Shown here in pieces: positions 18,774 through 46,902 of a DNA stretch of 64,000 nt. The notes below the pieces were generated by a model, which saw only the letters and a program-made list of their open reading frames with translations, ran no database searches and was not told where the DNA came from. A program made the position numbers and the translations under genes. How positions within the stretch are numbered: position 1 is the stretch's first letter; each line of letters starts with the position of its first letter. The DNA is from Elusimicrobiota bacterium (GTDB lineage Bacteria; Elusimicrobiota; Elusimicrobia; UBA1565). Location of the stretch: the NCBI GenBank assembly GCA_016212885.1, contig JACRDO010000132.1:28779-92778 (forward strand), given 5' to 3'.

Positions 18774-18792
18774 CAAAAAGGCAATGAAAGCC

Positions 18793-18810
18793 CCGGCTTT
18801 TTCCTGCATA
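18793..18810 (+). terminator. Weak candidate intrinsic terminator or attenuator (short GC stem AAAGCC..GGCTTT followed by a T5 run) between the PorV-like gene and the histidine-kinase-FliG gene.
   Basis: gaAAGCCccGGCTTTTTcc, read from the sequence. The stem is short with a tight loop, so partial termination at most. Confidence 0.2.
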
Positions 18811-18811
18811 C

Positions 18812-21331
18812 TTGAGCGGTGACATGGACGCTGTCATCATCGTCCTGATCCCGGTGCTGTTCCTGACGCTGGCGGCCAGCATGCTGGTCGTCAGCCAGGT
18901 TTCCGGCTTCTTCCAGTCCAACAAGTACTCCCGCAAGCGCCAGCAGGACCGCATGGAGATCCAGCGGTTCATGGCCCAACTGGCCGGCGCGCAGAGCCAG
19001 GTCTTTGCGCGCAGCAAGGAGCTCGAGCGGCTCTCGGCGAACCTGCAGCTCAGCAACCAGGAGCTGGCCCGGCTCAACAGCATGAAGACGAAGTTCCTGT
19101 CGATGGTTGTCCACGATATGAGGACCCCGCTTGCCTCCATCAAGGGGTTCGGCGAAATGCTCAGCCGCCAGACGCTCCCGGCGCAGCAGACGAAGTATGT
19201 GAACTATATCGTCAGCGGCACGGACCAGATCAACCAGCTGATGGCCGACCTCACGGACCTCGCGGTCATCGAAGCAGGCAAGCTCAAAATGGAAAAGCAG
19301 CCATTCGCCTTGTCCGACATGGTCAATGACCTCGTGCCCGGGATTGGCCTGCAGGCGCAGAAGAAGGGCGTGATTTTCACGGCGCCGGAGCCGCCGCGGG
19401 GGATCACCGTAATCGGGGACAGCTTCCGTCTGCGCCAAGCGCTCCAGAACTTCCTCACCAACGCGGTCAAATTCACCCCCGCGGGGGGAAAAGTCGAGCT
19501 GAGGGTCAGCGTGGGCCCGCGGGGCGCGCTGTTCCAGGTCAAGGACACGGGCCCGGGCATCCACGCCTCCGAGCGCAAGCGCATCTTCGAGAAGTTTTAC
19601 CAGTCGCAGTTCGGGGACCCGAAGGCGCGCCAGAAGGGCTGGGGGCTCGGCCTCTCGATCGCGCAGGAGATCATCCGCTCGCACCAGGGGGAGATGGGGG
19701 TGGATTCCGCCGGGCTCGGCAAGGGCGCCACCTTCTGGTACCGCATCCCGCTCAAGCCCTCCAGGATGGCGGCCTACGCGCTCGCAAAGACCGCGGCGGC
19801 CGTCCTCCTGCTGGCCCTGCTCCTGCCGGGGGCCCGGGCCCAGCAGACGCTCCCGATCGAGGAGAAGGCGAAGTTCGAGAAATCCCTCGAGGACCGCGCC
19901 AACACGATCCTGCTCCACATCCTGGGGCCCAACCGCGGGCGTGTCGTAGTCGACGCCACGCTCGACTTCACCCGCATCGAGAAGTTCGACGTCAAGAGCG
20001 GAGCCGTATCGCCTGACCGGGAGACCCTCTACCTCTGGGAGAAGGTGGGAGCCCAATCGGGCGGCCAGGACCTGCTCCCGGGCATCCCGCCCCAGGAGCA
20101 GCTGCCGAACGCGAACCTGGCGCGCTCCTACGAGCGGCAAAACTCCTTCCCGACGGCCTTTATCAAGAGACTCAAGGTGACGGTTATCTTGGACGGCGCT
20201 GTCGGCGCCGACCAACGCAAGATCATCACGGATGCCCTGACGGAGGCTCTCGACCTCAAGAAAGATCGGGGAGTGGATGCAAACGGCTTCACGCTCAAAG
20301 ACGAAATGCTGATCGTTCCCGCCACCTTCGCCCCCGCATGGAAGACGGTCTGGTACACCCCGGAATCCGCAAGCCTCCTCTTCAAATACGCGCTCATCAG
20401 CCTGATGACGCTGATCACCCTCATCGTCGTCGCGGCCTGCTTCCTGAAGCTCGCGGAGGCGATGGACTCGATGGCGCAGGCGCAGGCCCATCAGCTCCAG
20501 ATGGACTTCGGCCAGCAGGGCGCCGACCTCGCCGGGAAGGAAGAGGAGGAGAAGAAGAAGAAGGAGGAGGAGGCCAAAGCCGAGAGCGCGGAGGCCGCCT
20601 CCACCAAGATCGTCTTCAACGTCAAGGTGGAGCAGATCGAGACGCTCATCGAGATGGTGCGCAGCCAGGACGCGGAGAACATCTCCCTCATCGCCGCGCA
20701 CCTCCCGCCCGACGTCAAGAAGGCGTTCCTGGCCAAGCTCCCGCCGAGCGTCTACAGCGAGGTGATCTTCTATCTCGGCCGCGTGCGCTTCATCGACCAG
20801 GAGGTTGTCTCCACCGTCAAGGACGAGCTGGAGCGGCGCCTGGAGAGCGCGGTCGGCGGCCGGTCGAACCTCCTCGGCATGATCGAGGCCTCGGACCTCA
20901 AGTCCAAGCGCGAGCTCCTCAAGCTGCTCGAGGAGCGCGACCCCGACCTTGCGCGGCAGCTGCGCGAGCAAATCCTGCTCTTCGAGGACCTCTCGGACCT
21001 CGAGGAGAAGGACTGGTCCTTGGTCTTCTCGGTCGTCACGCTCGAGGAATGGGCCTTCGCGCTCTACGATGCCCCGGAGGATCTGGTCGAGGCGCTCAAG
21101 AGCCAGATGCTTCCGAAGACCTGGGCCATCCTGTCCCAGATGATGCAGGTGGGCCGTCCCTCGGAAAGGGCCATCGAGGAGGCGCACGAGCGCATCGTCA
21201 ACTCGGTCTGGAAGCTGGTTCAGGACGGCCGCATCACCAACCCCATCACCCGCCGCATCGAGCGCATGGCCGCCCGGCCGAAGGAAGAGGGCCCTCCCCC
21301 CTTGGTCGAGGGCGCCGCGGAGCTGGGCTAG
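18812..21331 (+). CDS. Fusion protein (839 aa): N-terminal TM helix + sensor-less histidine kinase (HisKA + HATPase_c) - TM helix - ~180-aa periplasmic domain - TM helix - acidic/Lys-rich linker - FliG middle and C-terminal (motor torque) domains. Overall FliF-FliG-like topology.
   Basis: H-box SMVVHDMRTPLASIKGFGEML. N/G boxes FLTNAVKFTPAGGKVELRV...DTGPGI...GWGLGLSIAQEII. Hydrophobic helix AAAVLLLALLLPGARA. Periplasmic segment with KVTVILDGAVGADQRKIITDALTEAL. Second TM LLFKYALISLMTLITLIVVAACFL. EEEEKKKKEEEAKAE linker. FliG_M-like ENISLIAAHLPPDVKKAFLAKLPPSVYSEVIFYLGRV. FliG_C-like LLFEDLSDLEEKDWSLVFSVVTLEEWAFALYDAPEDLVEALKSQMLPKTWAILSQMMQVGRPSERAIEEAHERIVNSVWKLVQDGRI (compare FliG ...FEDI..LDDR.IQ..LREVD...LALALK....EL.EK...NMS.RA...L.ED.E.LGPVRLKDVEEAQQKIIN..R.LEE.GEI). 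No stop codon separates the kinase and FliG parts. The ATG at 18824 is an alternative start. Confidence 0.75.
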   Translation: MSGDMDAVIIVLIPVLFLTLAASMLVVSQVSGFFQSNKYSRKRQQDRMEIQRFMAQLAGAQSQVFARSKELERLSANLQLSNQELARLNSMKTKFLSMVVHDMRTPLASIKGFGEMLSRQTLPAQQTKYVNYIVSGTDQINQLMADLTDLAVIEAGKLKMEKQPFALSDMVNDLVPGIGLQAQKKGVIFTAPEPPRGITVIGDSFRLRQALQNFLTNAVKFTPAGGKVELRVSVGPRGALFQVKDTGPGIHASERKRIFEKFYQSQFGDPKARQKGWGLGLSIAQEIIRSHQGEMGVDSAGLGKGATFWYRIPLKPSRMAAYALAKTAAAVLLLALLLPGARAQQTLPIEEKAKFEKSLEDRANTILLHILGPNRGRVVVDATLDFTRIEKFDVKSGAVSPDRETLYLWEKVGAQSGGQDLLPGIPPQEQLPNANLARSYERQNSFPTAFIKRLKVTVILDGAVGADQRKIITDALTEALDLKKDRGVDANGFTLKDEMLIVPATFAPAWKTVWYTPESASLLFKYALISLMTLITLIVVAACFLKLAEAMDSMAQAQAHQLQMDFGQQGADLAGKEEEEKKKKEEEAKAESAEAASTKIVFNVKVEQIETLIEMVRSQDAENISLIAAHLPPDVKKAFLAKLPPSVYSEVIFYLGRVRFIDQEVVSTVKDELERRLESAVGGRSNLLGMIEASDLKSKRELLKLLEERDPDLARQLREQILLFEDLSDLEEKDWSLVFSVVTLEEWAFALYDAPEDLVEALKSQMLPKTWAILSQMMQVGRPSERAIEEAHERIVNSVWKLVQDGRITNPITRRIERMAARPKEEGPPPLVEGAAELG

Positions 21332-21334
21332 GCT

Positions 21335-22459
21335 ATGGCGGAGAAAGTCGACTTCCTTCTCGCCTCCCTGCGCGGCCAGCCACCGCCCGAGGCCCCGCCG
21401 TCCGTCGAGGCCCAGGCGGCTGCGGCCGCCTCGGAAGAGCAGCTCGCCCCTCTGCGCTCGAAGGTCGAGGAGCTCGAGCGCAAGCTCGCCGAGCTCTCGG
21501 CGCCGCCCGCCCCGCCGGAAGGCGCGGAGGCTCCGGCGGAGCCGCCCAAGCCGCCGACCGAACTGATGATGTTCCTGCACACGCGCATGGAGCTTCTCGA
21601 GCGCCGCCTGGAGCTCGCCCAGCAGGAGGCCCTGCGGGCCAACCTGGTCCTCCGCGAGCGCGAGGAAGCGCAGAAGAAGGCCCAGGGCGAGGTCGAGGAG
21701 CTCTTCCGCTCGATCCGCGAGCAGGAGCGCTCGGCCCGCTTCGACCGGAGGCTGCGCGAGCAGTACTCCGCGACCCACTCCCGCGTGGAGGAGCTGGAGG
21801 CCCGGCTGGCCATGGCCCAGCTGCGCATGGTCCCCGCCGACGAGGTTCTCCGGTCTATCGAGAGGGAGGAGGGCTTGGGCGAGCTCCGTTCCCGGCTGAA
21901 GGAGCAGCTTTCAAGGATGTCCGGGGGGGAGCCGTCCGTCGGCGCCCCGGCGCCGGCCCCGCCCCCAGCGCCTCCGGCAGGGGCCCCGGACCGGCCCGAG
22001 GGACCCGCACGGCCCGCGCAGGACGCCCCGTTCAACTATAGCGAGCTTCCGCCCCTTTCCATCGTGACGGCCAAGATCGCCGATCTTGAGCTTCGGCTCG
22101 CGGAGGCCGAGAAAGCCCGCGAGAAGGAGCGCCAAAGCCGCCTCCTCTGGGAGAACAACGTCCTTCAGGCGCTCCGGCAGTCCTCCGGCCGCTGGCAGAA
22201 AGCCGGCGGAGCCGGGCTTCTGGTGGAGGCGACTTTGGAGAGTATGGTAGAGTTGCTCAAGAAGAGGGACCTCCTCGCCGGGGAGACGGCTCAGATCCTG
22301 GACAGGCTCCGGTCCGAGCCGCCGGGCTCGGGGGAGGAGCCCCTCCTGCGGGCGCGGCTCGCGGAGCTGCGCAAGAGCATCGAAGAGCTCCAGGGCGAGC
22401 TCGACAAGAAGATGGCGATCGTCAACGCCTGGACCGAGCGGAATAAAGGCAAGGATTAA
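21335..22459 (+). CDS. Coiled-coil protein with Pro/Ala-rich low-complexity segments (374 aa). Possibly a FliH-like or scaffold component of the adjacent motor genes.
   Basis: ORF starts 3 nt after the FliG-fusion stop and ends 1 nt before motA (TAAATG). Heptad-rich segments (LRSKVEELERKLAELS, LELAQQEALRANLVLREREEAQKKAQGEVEEL, IADLELRLAEAEKAREKERQ). No recognizable catalytic motif. Confidence 0.5.
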   Translation: MAEKVDFLLASLRGQPPPEAPPSVEAQAAAAASEEQLAPLRSKVEELERKLAELSAPPAPPEGAEAPAEPPKPPTELMMFLHTRMELLERRLELAQQEALRANLVLREREEAQKKAQGEVEELFRSIREQERSARFDRRLREQYSATHSRVEELEARLAMAQLRMVPADEVLRSIEREEGLGELRSRLKEQLSRMSGGEPSVGAPAPAPPPAPPAGAPDRPEGPARPAQDAPFNYSELPPLSIVTAKIADLELRLAEAEKAREKERQSRLLWENNVLQALRQSSGRWQKAGGAGLLVEATLESMVELLKKRDLLAGETAQILDRLRSEPPGSGEEPLLRARLAELRKSIEELQGELDKKMAIVNAWTERNKGKD

Positions 22460-23197
22460 ATGGACATTACGACACTCTCCGGCATCGTCGGCGTCTTAGC
22501 CATGGTGCTCATCGGGGGCTTCACCGGCGAGCTCTCCGCGGTCTTCCTGAACGCGCACGGCATCGTGATCGTCTTCGGCGGGACCGCCGTCGCCATGCTC
22601 ATCAATACGCCGCTGCGCTATGTTCGGGAGACGCTCCTGGCGTTGGCGGAGCTCTTTCGGGGAGACCGCTTCAGCGACCCGGGCGAGCTGATCCCGGTGC
22701 TGGTGCGCCTTTCCGAGCAGGTCCAGGCGCACGGACTCGGGGCCCTGCGGGGCATCGACGAAAGGGCCGCGGGCGGCTTCCTCGGCCAGGCCGCCACCAC
22801 TGCGATGGAGTACAACAACCCCGACTTCGTCCGGCGCGTGCTGGAGACCGAGGTCAACAACAGGGTGGACCGGGCCAACGAGGTCATCAACGTGGTCCGC
22901 ACCATGGGCGTTGTCGCACCGATGTTCGGCCTGCTCGGCACCCTCATCGGCATCGTGCGGGTCATGGCCGTGCTCACCGACCCGGTGAAGGTCGCCCCGG
23001 CCATGGCTGTCGCCATCACCACGGCCTTCTACGGCATCGCCTTGGCCAACCTGGTGGCGGTCCCCATGGCCGGCAAGATGCGCTTCAGGCTGTGGGAGGA
23101 GATCAAGGTCCGGGCGATGGTCATTGAGGGCGTCATCGGCATGATGCAGGGCACGGTCCCCCTGGTGCTCGAGCGCCGCCTGCAGGCTTTCAAATAG
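22460..23197 (+). CDS. motA: MotA/PomA-family stator proton-channel subunit (MotA/TolQ/ExbB superfamily), 245 aa.
   Basis: Four-TM architecture with a large cytoplasmic loop between TM2 and TM3. C-terminal signature TTAFYGIALANLVAVPMAGKM. N-terminus MDITTLSGIVGVLAMVLIGG typical of MotA. Confidence 0.85.
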   Translation: MDITTLSGIVGVLAMVLIGGFTGELSAVFLNAHGIVIVFGGTAVAMLINTPLRYVRETLLALAELFRGDRFSDPGELIPVLVRLSEQVQAHGLGALRGIDERAAGGFLGQAATTAMEYNNPDFVRRVLETEVNNRVDRANEVINVVRTMGVVAPMFGLLGTLIGIVRVMAVLTDPVKVAPAMAVAITTAFYGIALANLVAVPMAGKMRFRLWEEIKVRAMVIEGVIGMMQGTVPLVLERRLQAFK

Positions 23198-23200
23198 ATC

Positions 23201-23881
23201 ATGGCCGTCTACCGCTTCAGGAAGGAGGAGCTCGAGGGACATCTCAACAGGAACGCCCTCTGGGCGATCGTCTACGGGGACATGATGAGCTACCTCATGA
23301 TCCTCTTCCTCCTCCTGCTCTCCACCGCGCTCATGAAGAACGTCAAGAAGGAGGATAGGCCGGAGGTCGAGAAGTCCCTCATGGAGATCCAGGTGGTCTT
23401 CGGCGGCAAGGTGGACAAGGCGTACGAGGAGAAGAGGTCGCGCGACGAGAAATTCTTCAAGATCTCCGAGGCGCTGAAGGGGATGCAGAGCGCCAACGTC
23501 AGCGTCATCGCCACCGAGAAGCTCGTCCGCGTGCAGCTCGGGGAGGGCGTTCTCTTCGACTCCGGCAGCGCGGAGCTCAAGGAGAGCGCCGCGCCGCTGC
23601 TGGAGCCTATCGCCAAGCAGATGCTCGTCCCCGACAACCAGATCCGCGTCGAAGGCCACACCGACACCGTCCCTATCCGAAAAGGCAAGTACAAGTCCAA
23701 CTGGGAGCTCTCCATGGCCCGCGCCTATTCGGTCGTCCGGACGCTCGAGGGGATGGGCGTCAAGCCGGAGCGGCTCTCCGGCATCGGCTACGGCGAGTAC
23801 CGCCCGGTCGCCGCCAACGACACCCCTGAGAACAAGGCCAAGAATCGCCGCATCGAGATCAACCTGCTGCGGTCGGAATAG
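23201..23881 (+). CDS. motB: MotB-family stator subunit with a C-terminal OmpA-like peptidoglycan-binding domain, 226 aa.
   Basis: Single TM helix carrying the conserved protonatable Asp (WAIVYGDMMSYLMILFLLLL). OmpA domain GHTDTVPI...NWELSMARAYSVVRTLEGMGVKPERLSGIGYGEYRPVAANDTPENKAKNRRIEI. Confidence 0.85.
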   Translation: MAVYRFRKEELEGHLNRNALWAIVYGDMMSYLMILFLLLLSTALMKNVKKEDRPEVEKSLMEIQVVFGGKVDKAYEEKRSRDEKFFKISEALKGMQSANVSVIATEKLVRVQLGEGVLFDSGSAELKESAAPLLEPIAKQMLVPDNQIRVEGHTDTVPIRKGKYKSNWELSMARAYSVVRTLEGMGVKPERLSGIGYGEYRPVAANDTPENKAKNRRIEINLLRSE

Positions 23882-34222: not shown

Positions 34223-34864
34223 CTACCGCTCCAAGAAGCCCGGCACCTCCCGGATGTCGTCTAGGACCGGGACACCGCTCCTCACCAGCCGGTGCTTGGC
34301 CTGATAGCCGCGCGCGATGAGCGCGCAGCCCACTCCCATGGCCCGCGCGGTCTCCAAGTCATGCACGGTATCGCCGATCAGGATGATCTTCTCCGGCTCT
34401 ATGCCGCAGGAGCGGATCCAGCTCGCGCCCAGCTCCACCTTGCTGCCGGCGTGGTAGTCCCCCAAGCCGAGGACCGGGTCGAAATAGTCCCGGATATTGA
34501 AATGGACCAGCGCTTTTTCGAGCATCTCGTGCTTGTAAGCCGATAGGATGCCCTGCTGAATTCCCTTGCCGCGGAGCGTCTCCAGAACGTCCGCGGCGCC
34601 CTCGTGGAGGCGGCCTTCGGCCCAGATGCGCTCATGGTAGAGCCCCGCCCATTCGTTCGCGGGGACGTCGAAAGGCTCCACGCTGAAGTCGAAGCCGATC
34701 TTCCGGTAGAACTCGATGACGGGGAAGTCGAAGTTCTCGAGGTAGTACTCCAGGGGGACCTCGGGCATGGAGCGGCGCCGGCGCATCGCGTTGAGGCACT
34801 CGAGGCAGAGCCGGGCGTCGTCGAGGAGCGTGCCGTTGAAGTCCCAGATGACGCGCCGGATCAC
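34223..34864 (-). CDS. HAD-superfamily hydrolase (phosphoglycolate phosphatase-like), about 213 aa.
   Basis: Motif I VIWDFNGTLLDD. Motif IV IGDTVHDLETARAMGV. GTG start overlapping the stop of the upstream GGDEF gene (GTGA). The Arg/Pro-rich upstream part of the 462-aa ORF is treated as non-coding. Confidence 0.75.
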   Translation of the reverse strand: MIRRVIWDFNGTLLDDARLCLECLNAMRRRRSMPEVPLEYYLENFDFPVIEFYRKIGFDFSVEPFDVPANEWAGLYHERIWAEGRLHEGAADVLETLRGKGIQQGILSAYKHEMLEKALVHFNIRDYFDPVLGLGDYHAGSKVELGASWIRSCGIEPEKIILIGDTVHDLETARAMGVGCALIARGYQAKHRLVRSGVPVLDDIREVPGFLER

Positions 34865-35826
34865 TTGTCGCCGCGGCGGTCGATGACGAAGCGGGAGCCC
34901 GGCCCGTCCTGCTGCTTGGCGAACTCCTTGAGCTCGGCGCAGATCTGGCTGACCTGACCGTAGGAGACCAGGCGCCTCTGGCGGTTGTGGCAGACGCCGA
35001 TCGCGATGGAGAGCAGGGGATGCTCGATGAGCCGGCCTTGGCGGTCGTTGGCCAGGATACCCCCGCGGGCGCGGTCTTCCTCCGGGTAGAAGGAAGGGGA
35101 GAGCCGGTCGAAGCCCTCGACCACGCGGCGGCAGAGGGCCTCCATGCTGTCCGGGTGGGTCACGATGATGAAGTCGTCGCCGCCGATGTGGCCGAGGAAG
35201 TCCGTCCCCGTCCCCGCTTCCCGGACCACCTCCACCAGCAGCTTGGCGGTCGCCCGAATGACGCGGTCCCCGGCGTCGTAGCCGTAGTGGTCGTTGTACG
35301 CCTTGAAGTCGTTGAGGTCGAGATAGAGCACGGCGAAGGGCCGAGCGGAGGCGACCGCTTCGGCGATGCGGTTTTCGATCATCACGTTGCCCGGCAGGCG
35401 GGTCAGGGGGTTCGCGTCGAGCCCCTGGCGCGTGCGGCGCAGGATCATGCGGATGCGGGCCAGCAGCTCGCCCAGGTTGAAGGGCTTGGTGAGGAAGTCG
35501 TCTGCGCCGCTTTCGAGGCCCTCGATGCGGTTCTCGACTTCCCGGCCAGCTGCCGAAAGGATGATGATGGGCAGGTGCTGGAACCCGGGGTCCGCCTTCA
35601 GCTCCCGGCACACGCTGAAGCCGTCCTTGAGCGGCATCCAGAGGTCCACGACGGCGATGTCGGGCACCTCGGCCCGGATGGCCGCCAAGGCCTGCTCGCC
35701 GTCCATGGCAATGCGCACCTCATAGCCTTCCTGCTCCAAGGCGCCTTTCATCAGCGCCAGCAGGTCCGGCTCATCATCGGCGACCAAGAGCCGCGCTTTC
35801 TTGACAGGAGAAGATTCGGGGCCCAC
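34861..35826 (-). CDS. Response-regulator receiver + GGDEF (diguanylate cyclase-like) protein with a noncanonical GGDDF active-site motif. PleD/WspR-like.
   Basis: Receiver ARLLVADDEPDLLALMKGALEQEGYEV...VDLWMPLKDGFSVCRELK. GGDEF domain FAVLYLDLNDFKAYNDHYGYDAGDRVIRATAKLL...GHIGGDDFIIV. Start placed at the in-frame GTG (VGPESSPVKKARLL). The ORF-track start at 36216 would run antisense through atpZ. Confidence 0.8.
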   Translation of the reverse strand: MGPESSPVKKARLLVADDEPDLLALMKGALEQEGYEVRIAMDGEQALAAIRAEVPDIAVVDLWMPLKDGFSVCRELKADPGFQHLPIIILSAAGREVENRIEGLESGADDFLTKPFNLGELLARIRMILRRTRQGLDANPLTRLPGNVMIENRIAEAVASARPFAVLYLDLNDFKAYNDHYGYDAGDRVIRATAKLLVEVVREAGTGTDFLGHIGGDDFIIVTHPDSMEALCRRVVEGFDRLSPSFYPEEDRARGGILANDRQGRLIEHPLLSIAIGVCHNRQRRLVSYGQVSQICAELKEFAKQQDGPGSRFVIDRRGDK

Positions 35827-35853
35827 GCGGGAAGGGTAGCATATTTGCTTAAA

Positions 35854-35883
35854 TTGACAGGCTTTTTCGGTTATTTGTAGAAT
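35854..35883 (+). promoter_or_regulatory. Sigma70-like promoter for the atp operon: TTGACA, 18-nt spacer, TAGAAT.
   Basis: aaaTTGACAggctttttcggttatttgTAGAATtg, read directly. Lies in the AT-richer gap between the divergent GGDEF gene and atpZ, about 20 nt upstream of the atpZ ATG. Confidence 0.5.
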
Positions 35884-35904
35884 TGTTTCGCTTTGTTTTT
35901 TGCC

Positions 35905-36129
35905 ATGAACGATGCCCGACAGCCGCCCCGCCGCAGCGCATGGACCGCTTTTGGGGCCGGAACCGAACTGGTCGTTTTCGCCCTGGCGGGTTTTTTCGCG
36001 GGCCGCTGGGCGGACAGCCGGTTCGGAACGCAGCCCTGGCTGCTTTTGGCGGGCACGCTTCTGGGCATCTGCCTTGGACTCTATCAGTTCATCCGAGAGA
36101 CGGTTATCGCTAAGGACCGCGCTCCGTAG
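35905..36129 (+). CDS. AtpZ/AtpI-like small membrane protein preceding the ATP synthase genes (about 74 aa).
   Basis: MNDARQPPRRSAWTAFGAGTELVVFALAGFFAGRWADSRFGTQPWLLLAGTLLGICLGLYQFIRE fits the AtpZ pattern (W..G.EL......G...D..FGT.PW..L....LG...G.Y..IR). The TTG at 35893 is an alternative start. Confidence 0.5.
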   Translation: MNDARQPPRRSAWTAFGAGTELVVFALAGFFAGRWADSRFGTQPWLLLAGTLLGICLGLYQFIRETVIAKDRAP

Positions 36130-36460
36130 CGCGGGCGAAGCGACAGCGGCGTCTTTGGCGGTAGCGGCCGCGCTGTGGGCCGCGCTGCCCCGCGGGGCCG
36201 CCGGCCAGGCGCTCATGGGACTGGGCGCGGCATGGGCCGTCTCGGCGGCCTGCGTGGCCGCGCTATTGGCCGCGCAGGGCCGTTCGATGAAGACGTTCCT
36301 GTGGGTCTACGGCGGGGGATTGGCCGCGCGCGCCTTTGTCCTCGCCGGACTGATGGCCGCGGTGTGGGGCCTGCCCAGCGGCGCCCAGGCCGCGCGGCTT
36401 CTGGCGTATGTCTTTGGCGTGCTGTTCCTGTTGCTGCTCGAGATCAGGCATCTGAGATGA
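36070..36460 (+). CDS. AtpI-like ATP synthase accessory membrane protein. Start uncertain.
   Basis: Reading frame ending at the ATGA overlap with atpB. Hydrophobic helices AASLAVAAALWAAL, AAWAVSAACVAALLAA, LAARAFVLAGLMAAVWGL, LLAYVFGVLFLLLL. No in-frame ATG before the first helix. Candidate TTG/ATG starts at 36070, 36155 or later. Confidence 0.4.
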
Positions 36461-37221
36461 ACTTCGAGGAAGTCGTCGGCCACCATCTGCTCGACCACGC
36501 GATCGGGCCCTTCGCCGCGGTCGGGGGGATCCGCTTCGGCTTGAGCAAGCACCTGCTGATGATGTGGATCAACGGCAGCCTGCTCCTCGTCGGGATCTCC
36601 TGGCTCTCCCGCGGCCGGTCCAAGGCGGCGCAGCTCGCCCGCATGGCCGTGGAGATGGTCGTCCTCTTCATCCGCGACGACATCGTCGAGCCCATCCTCG
36701 GGCATGCCGGCCGCCCGTACCTGCATTATTTCCTGACGCTGTTCTTCTTCATCCTCCTCTGCAACCTCGCGGGCCTGGTGCCCTACGGGGCCACGGCGAC
36801 CGGCAACATCGCCGTGACAGCTGCCCTGGCGAGCTGCACCTTCGCTCTGATCGTGCTCGGCGGCATCCGCGAGCAGGGGCTCTCCGGCTTCCTCAAGCAC
36901 ATCGTCCCGGGCGGGCTGCCCTGGTGGATCCTGCCGATCATGTTCGTCGTCGAGATTTCGGGGCTTTTCGCGAAGTGCTTCGCCCTCACGATCCGTCTTT
37001 TTGCGAACATGATCGCCGGCCACATCGTGGCCCTGGGGTTTCTGTCCCTGATCTTCACCTTCGGGGCCGCCAGCCGGCTGGCCGGGCTCGCCGCGGCGCC
37101 CTTTTCAGTGGCCGTGGTGGTGTTCGTCAACGCGCTGGAGGTGCTCGTCTGCCTTCTGCAGGCTTACATCTTCACGATGCTGACGGCAGTTTTCGTAGGC
37201 GGGGCTCTGCACCCGCACTGA
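36457..37221 (+). CDS. atpB: F0F1 ATP synthase subunit a.
   Basis: Conserved C-terminal region ILPIMFVVEISGLFAKCFALTIRLFANMIAGHIVAL including the essential Arg. Multi-TM. Start MNFEEVVGHHLLDH chosen inside the longer ORF-track ORF. Confidence 0.9.
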   Translation: MNFEEVVGHHLLDHAIGPFAAVGGIRFGLSKHLLMMWINGSLLLVGISWLSRGRSKAAQLARMAVEMVVLFIRDDIVEPILGHAGRPYLHYFLTLFFFILLCNLAGLVPYGATATGNIAVTAALASCTFALIVLGGIREQGLSGFLKHIVPGGLPWWILPIMFVVEISGLFAKCFALTIRLFANMIAGHIVALGFLSLIFTFGAASRLAGLAAAPFSVAVVVFVNALEVLVCLLQAYIFTMLTAVFVGGALHPH

Positions 37222-37277
37222 CAAAGCGGCCCCGTGAGCGTGAGGCGGCGGGCCGGAGGCCGCAAACGGAGGGTAGA

Positions 37278-37568
37278 ATGCTGAACATCGGACTTGGCTA
37301 CATAGGCGTCGGGATCGCCATAGGGGCGGGCCTTTTCGGCGCCGCGGCGGGCATCGGGAAGCTGGCGAGCGCGGCTCTTGAGGGGACGGCCCGGCAGCCG
37401 GAGGCGACGGGTTCGCTCCAGACCATGATGATCATCGCGGCCGCGCTGATCGAAGGGCTCGGGCTCTTTGCGCTCGTCATCGCCTTCCTGGCGGTCAATA
37501 CGCTCAACAAGAGCCTGCAGACAGGAGCGACGGCGGCGCCGGCGGCGGTGGAGGCGGGCCCGCGCTGA
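37278..37568 (+). CDS. atpE: F0F1 ATP synthase subunit c.
   Basis: GLGYIGVGIAIGAGLFGAAAGIGKLASAALEGTARQPEATGSLQTMMIIAAALIEGLGLFALVIAFL. Hairpin with the conserved carboxylate (E in AALIEG). GGAGGG RBS upstream of the ATG. A-rich C-terminal extension. Confidence 0.9.
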   Translation: MLNIGLGYIGVGIAIGAGLFGAAAGIGKLASAALEGTARQPEATGSLQTMMIIAAALIEGLGLFALVIAFLAVNTLNKSLQTGATAAPAAVEAGPR

Positions 37569-37578
37569 GCGGCGAACG

Positions 37579-38103
37579 ATGGAGACTCTGCTGAGCCCGG
37601 ATCCGGGCCTGTATATCTGGACCATCGTCAGCTTCCTCGTCCTGGTGGGCCTGCTGAAGGCTTTCGCCTGGGGCCCGCTCCTGCGCGCGGTGGAGGAGCG
37701 GGAGTCCGCCATGCGCTCCGAGCGCGAGAAGGCGGAGGCCGCGCGGCGGGAGGCGGAGGGCATCCAGCGCAGTCTCGCCGAGCAGCTCAAGGGCGTCGAC
37801 GCGCAGGCCCAGGAGATCCTCTCTAAGGCCGCTCGCGAAGGAGAGGCTCTGCGCGAGCGGCTCAAGAAGGACGCCGAGGAGGAGTCCAAGCGGCTCCTCG
37901 AGAGATCGCGCGAGCAGCTCGTGGAGGAGAAGGCGCGCCTCGTCGTCGAGCTGCGCGGGGAGGTCGCCGCGCTCTCCGTCCAGGCGGCGGAGCGGCTCCT
38001 CAAGAAGAGCTTAGACCCCGGCGTCAAGAAGGAAGCGCTCTCGGAGTTCCTCGGCCAGCTCGACGCGCGGGGCGGCGGCAAGGGCCCCGGAGGCGGCGCT
38101 TGA
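37579..38103 (+). CDS. atpF: F0F1 ATP synthase subunit b.
   Basis: N-terminal TM helix IWTIVSFLVLVGLLKAFAWGPL followed by a long charged helix (REAEGIQRSLAEQLKGVDAQAQEIL...). Confidence 0.85.
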   Translation: METLLSPDPGLYIWTIVSFLVLVGLLKAFAWGPLLRAVEERESAMRSEREKAEAARREAEGIQRSLAEQLKGVDAQAQEILSKAAREGEALRERLKKDAEEESKRLLERSREQLVEEKARLVVELRGEVAALSVQAAERLLKKSLDPGVKKEALSEFLGQLDARGGGKGPGGGA

Positions 38104-38636
38104 ATCTGTCCGAGCGCGTCCTCGCGCGGCGCTATGCCGCGGCGTTCGTCCTGGCGGCCTCGGCCGCTGAGGAAGGCGCCGAGACGGCCGTCTTGGAGCT
38201 GGAGCGGGCGGGAGGGGCGCTGCGCGGGGAGATGTCCCTGTTCCGCCATCCGCGGCTTTCCGCGGGCGAGAAGAAGGCCCTGCTCGCGAAGGCCGTGGGA
38301 AAATCCGCTTCCAGGACGGCGCTCCGCTTCTTGGAGATCCTCGTAGACAAGAAGCGCTTCGGCCTGCTGCCGCTGATCGTCCTAGACGCCGGCAAGGTCT
38401 TAGACGAGAGCAAGGGCCTGCTCCGGGCGCTTGCCCGCTCGGCGCAGCCCCTGACGCCGCAGGAAGCGGAGGCGCTGAAGGCCCGCCTGAGCCGGTTCAG
38501 CGGCAAGCTCGTGGAGCTCGACGCCCAAGTCGACGAGAGCCTGCTGGCCGGCGTGTCCGTGCGGCTCGGCGACTGGGTGCTCGACGGGAGCCTGCGGGGG
38601 CGCCTGCGCCGGATGGGAGATTATTTGACGGCATAA
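38100..38636 (+). CDS. atpH: F0F1 ATP synthase subunit delta (OSCP). TTG start overlapping the atpF stop.
   Basis: Size (178 aa), its position between atpF and atpA, and the C-terminal [16 protein letters not shown]-like sequence. Confidence 0.8.
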
Positions 38637-38641
38637 AACCC

Positions 38642-40156
38642 ATGGCTATACGACCAGAAGAGATCACCGGCGTCATCAAGGACCGGATTTCGGGCTACGA
38701 GGGCGCGGCCGACATCGCGGAGGAAGGGTTCGTCCTCCAGGTCGGCGACGGCATCGCCCGCGTCTACGGGCTGGAGAACGCGATGGCGGGGGAGCTGCTG
38801 GAGTTCCCGCACGGCGTCTTCGGGATGGCGCTCAACCTCGAGAAGGAGAACGTGGGCTGCGTGCTCTTCGGCCGCGGCGAGCTCATCGGCGAGGGCGACC
38901 CGGTGCGCCGGACGGGACGCATCATGCAGGTCCCGGTCGGAGAGGCCCTCGTCGGCCGGGTCGTGGACCCGCTCGGCCAGCCGATCGACGGGAGGGGCCC
39001 GATCAAGGCTTCGGGCACCCGGCCGGTCGAGGTCATCGCCCCGGGCGTGGTCGCGCGAGCGCCGGTCAGCTTCCCCCTGCAGACGGGCCTGAAGGCCATC
39101 GACTCCATGATCCCCATCGGCCGGGGCCAGCGGGAGCTGATCATCGGCGACCGGCAGACCGGAAAGACCGCGATCGTCATCGACGCGATCATCAACCAGA
39201 AGAATGCGCCCAAGCGCCCGGTCTGCATCTACGTCGCCGTGGGACAGAAGCAGTCCACGGTCGCGGGGGTCGTCAAGACGCTGGAGGAGTTCGGCGCGAT
39301 GGAGTACACCATCGTCGTCAGCGCGACGGCCTCGGACGCGGCCCCCCTGCTCTACCTCGCCCCGTATTCCGGCTGCGCCATGGGAGAGGAGTTCCTCTGG
39401 GCGGGCAAGGACGTGCTGGTCGTCTACGACGACCTCTCCAAGCACGCGCAGGCCTATCGCCAGCTCTCCCTGCTGCTGCGCCGGCCGCCGGGCCGCGAGG
39501 CGTATCCCGGCGACGTCTTCTACCTGCACTCGAGGCTTCTGGAGCGCGCCTGCAGGCTCTCGGATGAGAACGGCGGTGGCTCCCTGACTGCCCTGCCGAT
39601 CATCGAGACGCAGGCCGGGGACGTCTCCGCGTACATCCCGACCAACGTCATCTCGATCACGGACGGGCAGATCTACCTGGAGTCGAGCCTCTTCTACAGC
39701 GGCATCCGCCCGGCGCTGAACATCGGGATCTCGGTCTCCCGCGTGGGCGGCGCGGCCCAGATCAAGGCGGTCCGCCAGGTGGCGGGCAAGCTCAGGCTGG
39801 ACCTCGCGCAGTACAACGAGCTGGCGGCCTTCGCACAGTTCGGCTCGGACCTCGACAAGACCTCCCAGCAGCAGATCGCCCGCGGCCAGCGGATGGTCGA
39901 GCTGCTCAAGCAGGACCAGTATCGGCCGATGCCGGTGGAGGAGCAGGCGGCGTGCCTCTTCGCGGGCGTCAGCGGCTTCATCGACGACCTCCCGGTCGAG
40001 TCGATCCGCCGCTTCGAGGCCGGGTTCCTCAAGGCCCTGGCGCAGCGCCGGCCGGGCCTCCTGCGGGAGATCGCCGAGAAGCAGATCCTAGACGACGACT
40101 TGAAGGCCGGGCTCACGGAAGCCTGCTCCGAATTCCGGAAGGAGTTCAAGCCATGA
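38642..40156 (+). CDS. atpA: F0F1 ATP synthase subunit alpha.
   Basis: 504 aa. Walker [19 protein letters not shown]. Typical alpha-subunit N-terminus [16 protein letters not shown]. Confidence 0.95.
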
Positions 40157-40593
40157 AGACAGCGTTGTTGGCGGCGTCGTTGGCGGTTTCGCTTGCCTTG
40201 CCCGCGGCCGCGCAGGAAGCCGTTCCGATGGGGCAGGTCATCAATCTGAGCCTCGTGGAGGCCCTCGTCGCCGTCGAGCATGCGGACCTGTCCGGCATCT
40301 TCGGCTTCGTGCCGGAGGAGGCGGCCGGCTTCGCGCTGGCCGACTTCCTGATGCGCGACCACAAATCCCTCAAGCGCTTCATCCAGAAGTGCGAGAAGGA
40401 CTACAAGCAGGCTCATGGCACCAGCCTTTGGGACAAGCAGGTCCTGCTCCACCTCGTCACCATCAACGCGTCCGGAGCGGCGCCGATGGGCGTGAAGCGG
40501 ATCCCGGCGAAGCTGATGGACAGGGTCAATACGCTGAGCCTGGTGGATGGACTGCCCCTGGAGGTCGTGGTGCAGCGTCGCGGAGGGAAGTAG
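40153..40593 (+). CDS. Small secreted hypothetical protein (146 aa) inserted between atpA and atpG.
   Basis: ATG overlaps the atpA stop (ATGA). Signal peptide [21 protein letters not shown]. No recognizable domain. Confidence 0.5.
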
Positions 40594-41519
40594 TGAAGCG
40601 CGCCCTGGTCACCGGCGCGGCCGGCTTCATCGGGTCGAACCTCGCGCTCGAGCTGGAGCGCTTGGGCTGGCAAGTGGCGGCGCTCGACGACTTCAGCTCC
40701 GGGCACTTCGAGAACCTCCGGGGCTTCACCGGAGAGGTCATCGCCGCGGACGTCTCCCGCCCCCAGGACTGGGAGGGCCGGGTCGGGCGGGTCTGCGCCG
40801 TCTTCCACCAGGCGGCGATCACGGACACGACCGTCAGCGACCCGATGCGGATGATGCGGGTCAACGTGGAGGGCTTTCGCGACGTCCTCGGCTTCGCGCT
40901 GAGGGCCAGGGCCCGCTCCGTCGTCTACGCCTCCTCCGCCGGGGTCTACGGCCCCGGCCCCTGCCCGATGCGCGAGACCCAGGCGCCGAATCCCTTGAAC
41001 ATCTACGGATTCTCGAAGACGGCGATGGAGCGGGTCGCGGCCGGCTTCGCCGCGGCGCACCGCGGCGTGCAGGTGACCGGGCTGCGGTATTTCAACGTCT
41101 ACGGGCCGCGGGAGGCCCACAAGAAGAAGGCCGCGAGCATGATCTGGCAGCTTTATGAGCAGATGCGCCGGGGGCGGCGGCCCCGCATCTTCAAGCGCGG
41201 GGAGCAGTACCGGGACCAGATCTACGTCCGCGACATCGTGAGCGCGAATCTGAAGGCCCTGGCAGCCGGGAAGAACGGCGTCTTCAACGTCTGCACCGGG
41301 CGGGGGACGGACTTCAATACCATCGTCAAGGCGCTCAACGGCGTCTTGGGGACATCCCGGCAGCCCGAGTATTTCGACAACCCGTACCCGTTCTACCAGG
41401 ACCAGACCCTCGGGGACCCGGCGGCCGCGAAGAAAGCCCTGGGATTCGCCGCCCGCTGGAGCTTTTCGGAAGGCGTGAAGGACTACCTTGGAGGCCGCGC
41501 GGCCAAATGGCTTCCCTAA
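40593..41519 (+). CDS. hldD: ADP-L-glycero-D-manno-heptose 6-epimerase-like NAD(P)-dependent epimerase (HldD/RfaD family). GTG start.
   Basis: Rossmann motif VTGAAGFIGSNL. Catalytic YxxxK (NIYGFSK). HldD-specific regions RYFNVYGPREAHKKKAASM and YQDQTLGDPAAAKKALGF...EGVKDY. Confidence 0.7.
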   Translation: MKRALVTGAAGFIGSNLALELERLGWQVAALDDFSSGHFENLRGFTGEVIAADVSRPQDWEGRVGRVCAVFHQAAITDTTVSDPMRMMRVNVEGFRDVLGFALRARARSVVYASSAGVYGPGPCPMRETQAPNPLNIYGFSKTAMERVAAGFAAAHRGVQVTGLRYFNVYGPREAHKKKAASMIWQLYEQMRRGRRPRIFKRGEQYRDQIYVRDIVSANLKALAAGKNGVFNVCTGRGTDFNTIVKALNGVLGTSRQPEYFDNPYPFYQDQTLGDPAAAKKALGFAARWSFSEGVKDYLGGRAAKWLP

Positions 41520-42487
41520 GGGAGATCCGGCGCAAGATCAAGTCGGTGCGGTCCACCGAGCAGATCACCAAGGCGATGAAGATGATCGCGGCCGCCCGGA
41601 TGCGCCGCGCGCAGGCTTCGATCCTCGCTTCGCGCCCCTTCGCGGAGAAGATGGAGGAGGTCGTCTGTGGCCTCGCGGCCCTGGAGCGGGAGTCGCTCGA
41701 TCACCCGTTCTTCAAGCCCGCGTCGGCCGCCACCATGGCCTCGGAGGCGGGCCGCCCCTCGACGGCATCCCGAAGCGGCATTCCCTCGCCGGAAGGCTCG
41801 GTCACACTTCCTCGGGTTGGCCCTCGGTCGCCCGCGGCCCGTCCGGATTGCGGGGCCGGCCTCATCCTTGTGGCGGCCGACAAGGGCCTCTGCGGGGCCT
41901 TCAACGCGAACACCCTGCGCTCGGCCGTGGAGTGGATACGGGGCCGGCAGGAACGACCGGTCCGCCTGGCGGCCGTCGGCCGCAAGGCCCGCGATTTCGC
42001 CCTGCGCCTCCAAGGGGCTTCGATCGTCTACGAGATGGCCGGCATCTTCCCGAAGGTGTCCTTCGCCCACGCCGAGCTCCTCGGGCAGGCCGTCATCTCG
42101 GCCTATCTGGAAGGCCGGGTCTGCTCCGTCACGGCGATCTACAACGAGTTCCGTTCGGTGGTGTCCCAGAGGGTCGTCAAGCAGGAGCTGCTGCCGATCC
42201 CCATCCACAAGGAGAACGTGCGGGCCATGGATTTCAGGTTCGAGCCGGAGCGGCGCCGGGTGCTGGCCGCCCTGCTCCCGCGCTACCTGAAAGCCCAGCT
42301 CTACCGGATCCTGCTGGAGTCGCAGGCCGCGGAGCTGGCCGCCCGGATGAACGCGATGGACGCGGCGTCCAAGAACGCCGGGGAGCTGATCGATTCTCTG
42401 ACCTTGTCGCTCAATAGGACGCGGCAGAGCCTTATCACGAGGGAGATCGCCGAGCTGGTCGGCGGCGCGGAGGCCTTGGCCGCATAG
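41507..42487 (+). CDS. atpG: F0F1 ATP synthase subunit gamma, carrying a ~45-aa Pro/Ser/Ala-rich insertion before the DKGLCGAFN motif.
   Basis: N-terminus MASLREIRRKIKSVRSTEQITKAMKMIAAARMRRAQ. Motif DKGLCGAFNAN. C-terminus LSLNRTRQSLITREIAELVGGAEA. GGAGG RBS upstream. Overlaps hldD by 13 nt. Confidence 0.85.
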   Translation: MASLREIRRKIKSVRSTEQITKAMKMIAAARMRRAQASILASRPFAEKMEEVVCGLAALERESLDHPFFKPASAATMASEAGRPSTASRSGIPSPEGSVTLPRVGPRSPAARPDCGAGLILVAADKGLCGAFNANTLRSAVEWIRGRQERPVRLAAVGRKARDFALRLQGASIVYEMAGIFPKVSFAHAELLGQAVISAYLEGRVCSVTAIYNEFRSVVSQRVVKQELLPIPIHKENVRAMDFRFEPERRRVLAALLPRYLKAQLYRILLESQAAELAARMNAMDAASKNAGELIDSLTLSLNRTRQSLITREIAELVGGAEALAA

Positions 42488-42509
42488 ATCGGCGGATCTT
42501 GGGAGACAA

Positions 42510-44716
<2,207 letters not shown>

Positions 44717-44720
<4 letters not shown>

Positions 44721-46006
44721 CGCCCCAAACATCCGAAATGCGCATCGTCGCAGCGTTAGCCGCGCTCCTCCTCCTGCCCCGCGCCGCGCAGGGAGCCGAG
44801 GGCGCGTCCTGCGCCGTCATCCGCGGCCTGGCCGGAAGCCTTAAACCGGAGTGGAAGCCTTCGACGCCCAACCCGATCAACTGCTTCTTCCGCGGCGGGG
44901 AATCCTCCAACTACGTCCTGCCCACCCAGCCCTCGGCTTCAGCCGAGGTCCACATCATCAGCGTCCGGGAGGGGCGTTTCGGCGGCGAAGAAGCGGCGAA
45001 GGCGCGCGGCGCTACGGGCTCGGTCCGCGTGGTCCTGCATAAGACCCGCAAGCCTGCCATCCTGGTCTTGAACGCTCAGAAGCCCACCCGTTGGGAGCTG
45101 ACCGTCACGCAGGAGGCCGAGCTTCGGATGATCATCCTCCAGGGCCGGGGAGAGCAGGCCCTCAAAGGCGCGCCCAGCGGCATCCCCGTGCAAAGAAGGG
45201 CCGCGGAACAGGCGTGCGCGTTCGCCGAGCAATGGGAGGCGTTTGCGCAGGCCGATCCTCGGGCCGCCGCGGCGCGCGGGAAGCTGAACTCCGACTTCCG
45301 GGCCATGGCGCAGGGAATCCGCTGCCTGACCGGGCTTCGGGAAGCGTCGTTCCAGGGCTGCGGCTTGGGGCTTGTCTTCGAGGTGCCCCACTATCACCCG
45401 GACGCCAAGGGGCTGGACGCGGACGAGATCGCGCCCGTCTGTCCGGGCGGCCTTTCCTCTCCGGAAACCTCGGCCGCCGCGCCCCAGGCTTCAGAATCGC
45501 CGGAGGGCGCCGCTGTGCAGGCGAGGGCTCCGGAGGGCCCGAAGTCGCCCAAGAGAGAGGGGCCCGAAGCGGAAATAGAGAACAAGACGCAAAAGCCGAA
45601 AAAGCCCCAGGAGACCCTCTCCTCTTCCCCCGGCATCCCGATGCGGGACTATATCTCCGTGCGGGCCGAAGCCATCCTCATGAAGGGGGACAGGACCCTG
45701 CTCACCCATGACGCGGTGCCGGACCTCGTGCTCGTCCTGGAAAGGGGGGACGCGAGGCTGCGCTCCCGGGCCGCGGACGCCCTGGGACAGCTCGGAGCGG
45801 AGGGCGCGGACGCCGTGGCCGCGCTCATGCGGACCCTGGCGAAGGACGAGAGCCCCCGCGCACGTTCGAGCGCGGCCCTGGCGCTCGGGAACATCGGTCC
45901 CGCGGCGAAGGAAGCCGTTCCCCTCCTCAAGCGCGCGGCCAAGAGCAGGAACCCGGACCTACGCCTGAGCGCCAAGACGGCGCTCGAGCGGCTCGGGGCC
46001 GATTAA
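44717..46006 (+). CDS. Secreted hypothetical protein with C-terminal HEAT/PBS-lyase-like repeats (429 aa).
   Basis: Signal peptide MRIVAALAALLLLPRAAQGAEG. Repeats ...LRSRAADALGQLGAEGADAV...ARSSAALALGNIGPAAKEAVPLL... Confidence 0.5.
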
Positions 46007-46902
46007 TCCTTCCCGACGATCTCCAGGAAGCGCGGATCATCCCGCAGGGAATCGAACTCGAGCGCTTTGCGCGCCTCGGCCATATAGGCCTTGTCGAGCT
46101 TGATCGCGGCGCGGATGTCCTCCAGGGCCTCGTCGAAGCGCCCGAGCGCCGCGAGCAGGATCGCGTGATGATATCGGCCGGAGGCGTACTCGGGGTCCAT
46201 CCGCGCGGCTATTGCGAGCTCCGCCTCGCCGGCTTCGGGGTCCGAGGCCTTGCCGTAGAGCAGGACCCCGTTGGCGGCGTGCCCCTCGGCGCGCCGGCGC
46301 CGGGCATTGGTGTTGCGCAGCCGGATGAGCGCGAAGCGGTAGAGGGCCGTCTCCGGGCCGCCGCGCGTCTTGAAGACGAGCAGGGAGCAGGTGATGAGGG
46401 GATGGTAATGCACGCGGGAGAGGCGGAAGGAGGCCGGCGGCCAGTCCGGAGAGCCGGCGGCCTTGAAGGACGGCGTTGTCGTAAGGAGCTCGACAAGGCC
46501 TGGCTGCGACCCCATGGCCCCCTCGCGGACGTCCTCCACGTAGCCTTTGATGGAATAGTCCTTCGCGAGAGCCTCTGAGACCTGCTGGGCCTGCTGGCTG
46601 CTCCAGAACTCATCCTTGCGGGAATTGAGGATCCAGTCAGCTTCGGGCCGGACCGCGCCCGCCGGGATCGTCAATGTCCCGAACTGCCAGGACTTCGGCT
46701 CCCCTAGCATCGTCTTCCCGAAAGGGGGGTAGCTCACCTTGCTCACAGCGGCCGAGCAGGACGGCCCCCAGCCGATGAACGAGAACTCGTCGTGGGCCTG
46801 CTGGCGCTGGATCGTGGTCGCGCCGCCGATAACCTTGACGTGGGCCGCGCGGGCCGGCGAAGCCGGAATGAAAAAGAGGAAGGCGATCATCCATTGGGAC
46901 AT
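46003..46902 (-). CDS. Secreted hypothetical protein with C-terminal TPR-like repeats (299 aa).
   Basis: N-terminal hydrophobic signal MSQWMIAFLFFIPASPARAAH. TPR-like YHHAILLAALGRFDEALEDIRAAIKLD. Confidence 0.5.
   Translation of the reverse strand: MSQWMIAFLFFIPASPARAAHVKVIGGATTIQRQQAHDEFSFIGWGPSCSAAVSKVSYPPFGKTMLGEPKSWQFGTLTIPAGAVRPEADWILNSRKDEFWSSQQAQQVSEALAKDYSIKGYVEDVREGAMGSQPGLVELLTTTPSFKAAGSPDWPPASFRLSRVHYHPLITCSLLVFKTRGGPETALYRFALIRLRNTNARRRRAEGHAANGVLLYGKASDPEAGEAELAIAARMDPEYASGRYHHAILLAALGRFDEALEDIRAAIKLDKAYMAEARKALEFDSLRDDPRFLEIVGKD

Follow-up and report, generated by a model that had tools for sequence, protein, structure and literature searches.

What are two genes foreign to the ATP synthase doing between atpA and atpG, in the middle of an ATP-synthase operon, and how did they come to be there? 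The question is raised by a stretch of 64,000 nucleotides (contig JACRDO010000132.1 of assembly GCA_016212885.1, positions 28,779 to 92,778; 66.6% guanine plus cytosine, GC) from a metagenome-assembled genome of an Elusimicrobiota bacterium, which we call the window. In it, a gene for a small protein predicted to be exported, here called X (a small open reading frame, ORF, with NCBI locus tag HY922_13040), and a gene for an epimerase of the HldD type stand between the genes of the alpha and gamma subunits. Our answer, in short, is that this layout is an old, vertically inherited architecture that is found across the whole lineage. The four genes in question are the following (lengths in amino acids, aa).

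38642 to 40156, plus strand: atpA, subunit alpha, 504 aa, with the three ATP-synt_ab domains PF02874, PF00006 and PF00306
40153 to 40593, plus strand: X, predicted exported protein of 146 aa from an orphan family, with a signal peptide at residues 1-20 and an all-alpha domain at about residues 30-146
40593 to 41519, plus strand: HldD-type epimerase of the extended short-chain dehydrogenase/reductase (SDR) type, 308 aa, matching PF01370 (2e-46), with a GTG start and a TAA stop at 41517-41519
41507 to 42487, plus strand: atpG, subunit gamma, 326 aa, matching PF00231 (1e-84), with an insert of about 35 aa specific to the window

These genes do not merely follow one another. The stop codon of atpA and the ATG of X are interlocked as ATGA at 40153-40156, the TAG stop of X (40591-40593) shares its last letter with the GTG of the epimerase at 40593 to give TAGTG (40591-40595), and the epimerase overlaps by 13 nt with atpG, the ATG of which is at 41507. 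Motifs of the AGGAG type lie 5-12 nt upstream of the starts of X, the epimerase and atpG, each within the preceding gene (for X it is AGGAG itself, 8 nt upstream of the ATG and thus inside atpA). The initial annotation of this DNA had pointed out the overlapping stop and start codons, and these are base-exact in the raw sequence; it had also recognised two extra genes between atpA and atpG, the signal peptide of the one and the HldD-like identity of the other, all of which is borne out by the sequence, Pfam and NCBIfam.

Because the source is a metagenome-assembled genome, it had to be checked whether the contig is chimeric, whether the layout is an artefact of annotation and whether a mobile insertion was acquired recently; nothing in favour of any of these was found. 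The initial annotation itself had allowed for a mis-assembly at 40150 or 41520. This is argued against by the Logan assembly of run SRR12113407 (locus L001, 1940 bp), which runs independently from the end of atpA through X and the epimerase to the start of atpG with 100% protein identity, and so spans all three junctions. Moreover, the same order recurs at more than 30 other Elusimicrobia loci that come from different samples and assemblers. We therefore reject mis-assembly. As for a recent horizontal insertion or a mobile element, there is no composition step at the X/epimerase insert (GC at third codon positions, GC3, is 0.88 in X, 0.93 in the epimerase and 0.86-0.94 in the atp genes), no meaningful repeats flank it (only short imperfect ones were found), and the divergence of the inserted genes parallels that of the atp genes; this possibility was rejected as well. 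Taken together, an artefact or a recent event seems to us extremely improbable.

How widespread, then, is the arrangement? Homologues of X were found in Elusimicrobia only. The four that we looked up for their context (42-74% identity) all lie in the order atpA, X, epimerase, atpG, and a scan with one genome per GTDB species recovered X in 20 species representatives, all of them Elusimicrobia/Elusimicrobiota. A tblastn map gave the identical order at every locus with enough flank, down to 71% identity in atpA, and the same succession is present in JGI, ENA and NCBI loci and in the closed 3.8-Mb genome CP096137.1. Two further loci, reached through a PilZ gene that is described below, share the order too, one of them in a lineage of 57% GC, and the X profile recognises the small ORFs of the two at 3e-41 and 5e-25. 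The junctions are conserved along with the order: the spacing is -4 or -1 nt between atpA and X in 20 of 23 non-redundant loci, -4 between X and the epimerase in 17 of 24, and -13 to +6 between the epimerase and atpG in all loci measured, with the caveat that the start was taken as the start codon nearest to the upstream stop, which biases these gaps downward.

Outside such loci the slot is nearly always closed. Of 80 loci recovered from metagenomes in a scan that started from an alignment of atpG, 71 have both atpA and atpG, and in 67 of these the two genes are adjacent, separated by 10-169 nt. The claim that bacteria seldom have this pair of genes interrupted is thus upheld. It is no one-off interruption, as one might have supposed from a single contig, since the comparison of operons in relatives finds it lineage-wide, in the 20 GTDB species representatives and the other loci. 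The four exceptions among the 71 are locus L033, which belongs to the clade, loci L034 and L036, which carry the epimerase only, and the unrelated locus L084. In this last one (65% GC) a 79-aa ORF at 5664-5903 occupies an atpA-atpG gap of about 500 nt; it is the only unrelated interruption among the 71 loci.

The two epimerase-only loci deserve particular attention, as they tell us that the epimerase and X did not arrive together. In L034 (55% GC), the proteins of which are identical to those of Elusimicrobia bacterium RIFCSPLOWO2_01_FULL_54_10, the epimerase stands alone in the slot between atpA and atpG with junctions of 0-1 nt and is 51% identical to that of the window; L036 (37% GC) has the same arrangement in the same slot. 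(In L036 we also noticed, at 6889-7250, a stretch of 362 nt between atpG and atpD without any plus-strand ORF of at least 50 aa.) The presence of the epimerase without X at these two loci suggests that the insertion of the epimerase is the older and more widespread one, and that X came later, in the high-GC clade. Vertical descent after that is supported by pairwise-identity matrices from 20 loci: the divergence of the epimerase parallels that of atpA, atpG and atpD, its correlation with atpA reaches r = 0.92 (none of 2000 permutations reached it), and the atp genes correlate with one another at r = 0.91-0.95. This is what we expect from a single ancient insertion. Mean pairwise identity over the same loci is 0.83 for atpD, 0.79 for atpA, 0.67 for the epimerase and 0.65 for atpG.

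What is the epimerase? Its best NCBIfam model is TIGR02197 (ADP-glyceromanno-heptose 6-epimerase), at 261.6 bits against 109.5 bits for GalE, and this margin of 150 bits led us to reject GalE or another SDR identity. Among eight orthologues from the slot between atpA and atpG, the TIGR02197 scores run from 255 to 307 bits, for a curated cut-off of 274.6, and three of the eight pass, so that the orthologous group straddles the cut-off for HldD. The best 120 database relatives are all at least 60% identical; those with a name are Elusimicrobia, and many are annotated as ADP-glyceromanno-heptose 6-epimerase. The Rossmann motif GxxGxxG is present at residues 8-14 (VTGAAGFIGSN, aligned to VTGGAGFIGSN in the E. 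coli enzyme). In E. coli HldD, S116, Y140 and K144 are the catalytic Ser/Tyr/Lys of SDR enzymes, and K178 is a second catalytic base. All four are retained: aligned with 1eq2, the window protein has S115, Y138, K142 and K177. Among solved structures, H. pylori HldD (3sxp, 5e-59) comes closest, with E. coli HldD (1eq2) at 7e-37. We conclude from these residues and scores that the gene is predicted to encode an HldD-family enzyme with an intact active site. Compared with HldD/RfaD of H. pylori (HP0859, PDB 3SXP) and E. coli (PDB 1EQ2), it is alike in length, fold family, GxxGxxG, the Ser/Tyr/Lys residues and the second Lys; it differs in falling just under the equivalog cut-off and in being encoded in an atp operon instead of with heptose or lipopolysaccharide (LPS) genes, and its activity is a prediction. 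The initial annotation spoke of an LPS-core sugar enzyme, and the family part of this statement stands; the substrate, and any role in the LPS core, we infer from family membership, with no other heptose-pathway gene, and no LPS gene, found in the window. Nor does the window contain a second copy of the epimerase.

Protein X is more puzzling. Its homologues share a Sec-type signal peptide with the consensus MKxxLLxAxLAAxAxPAAAQ (12 of 12 aligned), and 33 of the 34 scorable representatives of the family have a signal-peptide-like N-terminus; by rule-based inspection, the MK start, the hydrophobic core and the AAA|QE cleavage site predict Sec export. An alternative start at Met26, which would drop the signal peptide, was rejected as the homologues lack this Met and keep the hydrophobic N-terminus. 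After the signal peptide comes a variable linker rich in Pro, Ala and Gln, and then a conserved domain, about 115 aa long, which contains the motif L[AS]GIFGFVPE. X has no recognisable fold: no match was found in Pfam (E up to 5) or NCBIfam, and a search of the X profile against 1.84 billion cluster representatives returned 59 members only, all of them from X's own family. X has been seen solely in the slot between atpA and the epimerase, with no second copy in the window. X is thus a new and narrowly distributed family of proteins that, judging from their N-termini, are exported.

The insert has to be seen in the frame of the operon as a whole. Fourteen plus-strand genes follow one another from 35893 to 46006 with every gap on the coding strand at most 56 nt (ORF list and raw sequence), in the order atpI, a small membrane ORF, atpB, E, F, H, A, X, the epimerase, atpG, a PilZ gene, atpD, atpC and a HEAT-repeat ORF. 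The genes for subunits a, c, b, delta, alpha, gamma, beta and epsilon are all co-oriented and contiguous, as in an F-type ATP-synthase operon. Besides the four genes given above, the features of the region are these.

34861 to 35820, minus strand: response regulator with a GGDEF-family domain (motif GGDDF), divergent from the operon; PF00072 and PF00990 in its orthologues
35854 to 35883, plus strand: candidate sigma-70-like promoter just upstream of atpI, TTGACA-18 nt-TAGAAT, with 11 of 12 consensus matches (a consensus match only)
35893 to 36129, plus strand: atpI-like gene, 78 aa, matching PF09527 ATPase_gene1 (1.6e-15)
about 36155 to 36460, plus strand: small membrane ORF between atpI and atpB, with an uncertain start (36074, 36155 or 36215)
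36457 to 37221, plus strand: atpB, subunit a, 254 aa, the ATG overlapping the upstream stop (ATGA); homologues carry PF00119
37278 to 37568, plus strand: atpE, subunit c, 96 aa including a tail of about 22 aa at the C-terminus
37579 to 38103, plus strand: atpF, subunit b
38100 to 38636, plus strand: atpH, subunit delta, overlapping the atpF stop by 4 nt
42510 to 42857, plus strand: PilZ-domain protein, 115 aa, matching PF07238 (8e-15), with R12, R16, D41, S43 and G46
42854 to 44275, plus strand: atpD, subunit beta, 473 aa, overlapping the PilZ stop by 4 nt
about 44268 to 44720, plus strand: atpC, subunit epsilon, start probably TTG at 44268
44717 to 46006, plus strand: HEAT-repeat protein of 429 aa, predicted to be exported, overlapping the atpC stop by 4 nt; the co-oriented block ends with it

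A simple consensus scan of the plus strand over 35500-46500 found a single strong sigma-70-like site, the one upstream of atpI, and no convincing promoter-like site on the coding strand inside the operon; a similarly simple scan found no plus-strand terminator-like site in 40153-41519. No Rfam family matched anywhere in the window. The proposal of the initial annotation that the inserted genes are co-expressed with the ATP synthase is therefore plausible, with one promoter-like site upstream of atpI, none inside, and gaps of at most 56 nt. It had also considered that the arrangement might be a fixed feature of the lineage with a promoter of its own: the former is true, and for the latter no separate promoter was found. 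No Pfam family matches the small membrane ORF that separates atpI from atpB; in several relatives the same slot holds an unannotated ORF of 49-131 aa.

Compared with the canonical atpIBEFHAGDC operon (unc of E. coli), the eight subunit genes and atpI are thus present in canonical order on one strand, whereas here the delta-alpha-gamma block is split by two non-atp genes, a PilZ gene lies at the gamma-beta junction, and a HEAT-repeat gene is coupled to atpC. In the survey by Koumandou and Kossida (2014; PMC4154653), delta-alpha-gamma is one of the three blocks that usually stay intact; the survey also shows that atp gene order can change, and a figure marks hypothetical intervening ORFs in some lineages. 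The breaks documented there are mostly relocations, for example at the gamma/beta junction, in contrast to the layout described here, and the text of the article neither mentions Elusimicrobia nor describes an enzyme gene translationally coupled between alpha and gamma. A search of full-text literature yielded nothing on genes between atpA and atpG, on hldD in atp operons or on PilZ proteins with the ATP synthase, and the arrangement is not discussed in a survey of Elusimicrobia genomes (bioRxiv 10.1101/765248).

The initial annotation passed over a third inserted gene, the one between atpG and atpD that encodes a PilZ protein of about 115 aa. It is present in most X-bearing operons and absent from L002, L004/L005, L015 and L025, where X and the epimerase are nonetheless present. 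The family is well conserved, with RxxxR (R12, R16) and DxSxxG (D41, S43, G46) invariant in 27 sequences; PF07238 combined with RxxxR and D/NxSxxG makes it a predicted receptor of cyclic di-GMP (c-di-GMP). All homologues with a named organism are from Elusimicrobia, the two that were examined for context occupy this same slot, and there is no second copy in the window. JGI labels several of them YcgR-like. The resemblance to YcgR, the brake of the flagellar motor, is in the RxxxR and DxSxxG motifs; the operon protein differs in being a single domain of about 115 aa without the N-terminal domain of YcgR, and its gene lies in the operon of another rotary machine, with the rotor gene (gamma) on one side and the stator gene (beta) on the other.

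PilZ is not the only further addition. The response-regulator/GGDEF gene lies divergently upstream of the operon in the window and in most loci, and its motif GHIGGDDF (GHIGGDDFI in the window) is conserved in the window and 19 further loci. HEAT-repeat homologues follow atpC in L002 and L006 and, by coordinates, overlap the atpC stop by 4 nt there as well. In L034, a sensor histidine kinase (441 aa) and a double-receiver protein (250 aa) lie between atpD and atpC (7241-9326), the latter overlapping the start of atpC. The atp operons that bear X and/or the epimerase have clearly taken in foreign genes repeatedly.

Two peculiarities of the atp genes themselves should be recorded. The C-terminal tail of atpE, rich in Ala, Pro and Ser and about 22 aa long (approximately 37494-37565), is on the periplasmic side; all epimerase-bearing operons, those of L034 and L036 among them, encode such a c-subunit tail, and none of five outgroup operons does. 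The insert in atpG, at approximately 41720-41845, is a low-complexity segment (about 35 aa) that seven relatives, one of them 83% identical, do not have; it is flanked by an 18-nt inverted repeat, 89% complementary, at 41716-41733 and 41870-41887.

Elsewhere in the window, a single plus-strand ORF of more than 5,691 codons (2-17077; GC3 0.89), which runs off the left end, looks like a gene for a giant protein. Further on, an open frame of 847 aa (18788-21331, plus strand) has matches to HisKA/HATPase_c and to the middle and C-terminal domains of FliG, and may be one fused protein or two adjacent genes; within 18788-23881 (plus strand) it is followed by an unannotated ORF, a MotA/ExbB-like gene and a MotB/OmpA-like gene.

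What do the extra genes do in this place? What we establish is limited to the anatomy, the conservation and the vertical inheritance of the layout, and it is a real, undescribed and probably harmless variant of a very conserved operon. The account that we favour, and hold to be rather probable, takes the epimerase and X for entrenched hitchhikers that share a transcript with the atp genes and are coupled to them in translation, the former working in the synthesis of an envelope glycan and the latter in the periplasm. In this account, the gene of an HldD-type nucleotide-sugar epimerase would have entered between atpA and atpG in an early ancestor of this free-living Elusimicrobia lineage, the X gene would have followed between atpA and the epimerase in the high-GC sub-clade, and most members of that sub-clade would then have gained PilZ between atpG and atpD. 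The candidate promoter upstream of atpI would drive the whole operon as a single polycistronic transcript, and translation of the inserted genes would be coupled to that of their atp neighbours by overlapping or abutting stops and starts, with Shine-Dalgarno motifs inside the upstream gene. Excision would then disturb the translation of essential neighbours, which would explain the entrenchment, and the arrangement would give constitutive, growth-linked expression. The capture of other unrelated genes (PilZ, the HEAT-repeat gene, the kinase and receiver genes of L034) fits the idea of the operon as an expression platform. The epimerase most likely still makes ADP-L-glycero-D-manno-heptose for LPS or another envelope glycan, as its family would suggest, X would act in the periplasm, and neither would be part of the ATP synthase. 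Several observations nevertheless weigh against this account. The epimerase misses the curated equivalog cut-off of TIGR02197 (261.6 against 274.6 bits), and its metabolic context is putative, since neither the 64 kb of the window nor the flanking genes annotated in relatives include gmhA, hldE, gmhB or a heptosyltransferase gene. X has been seen in its operon slot alone, and its family has no more than 59 cluster representatives, whereas one might expect a pure hitchhiker with a function of its own to turn up in other places as well. Conservation is slightly higher in the epimerase than in atpG (0.67 versus 0.65), and the junctions of the inserted genes are tighter than some junctions between true atp genes. 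Finally, a PilZ gene within the F1 block, next to a GGDEF regulator, hints at regulation that is aimed at the ATP synthase.

This hint can be developed in two directions. It could be that the placement was selected, tying the supply of envelope glycan (through the epimerase) and of a periplasmic factor (X) to the output of ATP synthase, under a c-di-GMP or two-component circuit made up of the divergent regulator and PilZ. The divergent regulator is indeed kept in most relatives with its GHIGGDDF motif, the c-di-GMP-binding motifs of PilZ do not vary among the 27 sequences, a kinase and a receiver protein have settled within the operon of L034, and tight coupling is maintained across the clade. 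On the other hand, no regulatory site, riboswitch or RNA family was found in the window, the regulator carries a GGDDF variant, so that its activity is putative, and PilZ is missing from the loci named above while X and the epimerase stay; conservation alone, moreover, cannot separate selection for co-regulation from entrenchment. We regard such adaptive co-regulation as rather doubtful. The other direction is that the SDR protein, X and/or PilZ bind F1Fo as lineage-specific subunits, assembly factors or regulators. One may imagine that F1 carries a nucleotide-binding SDR, that X sits on the periplasmic side of Fo, close to the tailed c-ring, or that PilZ serves as a c-di-GMP-dependent brake. 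There are precedents, for complex I has an SDR-fold subunit, NDUFA9, and the PilZ protein YcgR brakes the flagellar rotary motor. This would fit with the confinement of X to the slot between atpA and the epimerase, the strict conservation of the position inside the delta-alpha-gamma block, an epimerase as conserved as gamma, a periplasmic c-subunit tail of about 22 aa that occurs only in epimerase-bearing operons, and a gene for a putative c-di-GMP receptor placed between rotor and stator genes. It fits less well with the intact catalytic residues of HldD, needless for a purely structural subunit, or with a stepwise gain in which X would have come much later than the epimerase, and with a PilZ that several genomes do without; these co-occurrences are confounded by shared ancestry, and neither F1Fo association nor homology to a known subunit or chaperone was found for X or the epimerase. 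We consider accessory components of this kind improbable, and likewise think it unlikely that even one of the SDR protein, X and PilZ acts directly on the ATP synthase. Entrenched hitchhiking is the reading that we retain.

Few gene orders in bacteria are as stable as that of the F1 genes, and here, in a deep lineage, this order has been opened at least three times and refrozen by translational coupling. If the extra genes are hitchhikers, they would provide a clean natural example of unrelated genes entrenched in an essential operon, as well as a useful marker for the classification of Elusimicrobia lineages. If it is true, instead, that any of them acts on the enzyme (PilZ being the most suggestive), this would be a new regulation of the rotary ATP synthase and would link c-di-GMP to F-ATPases for the first time.

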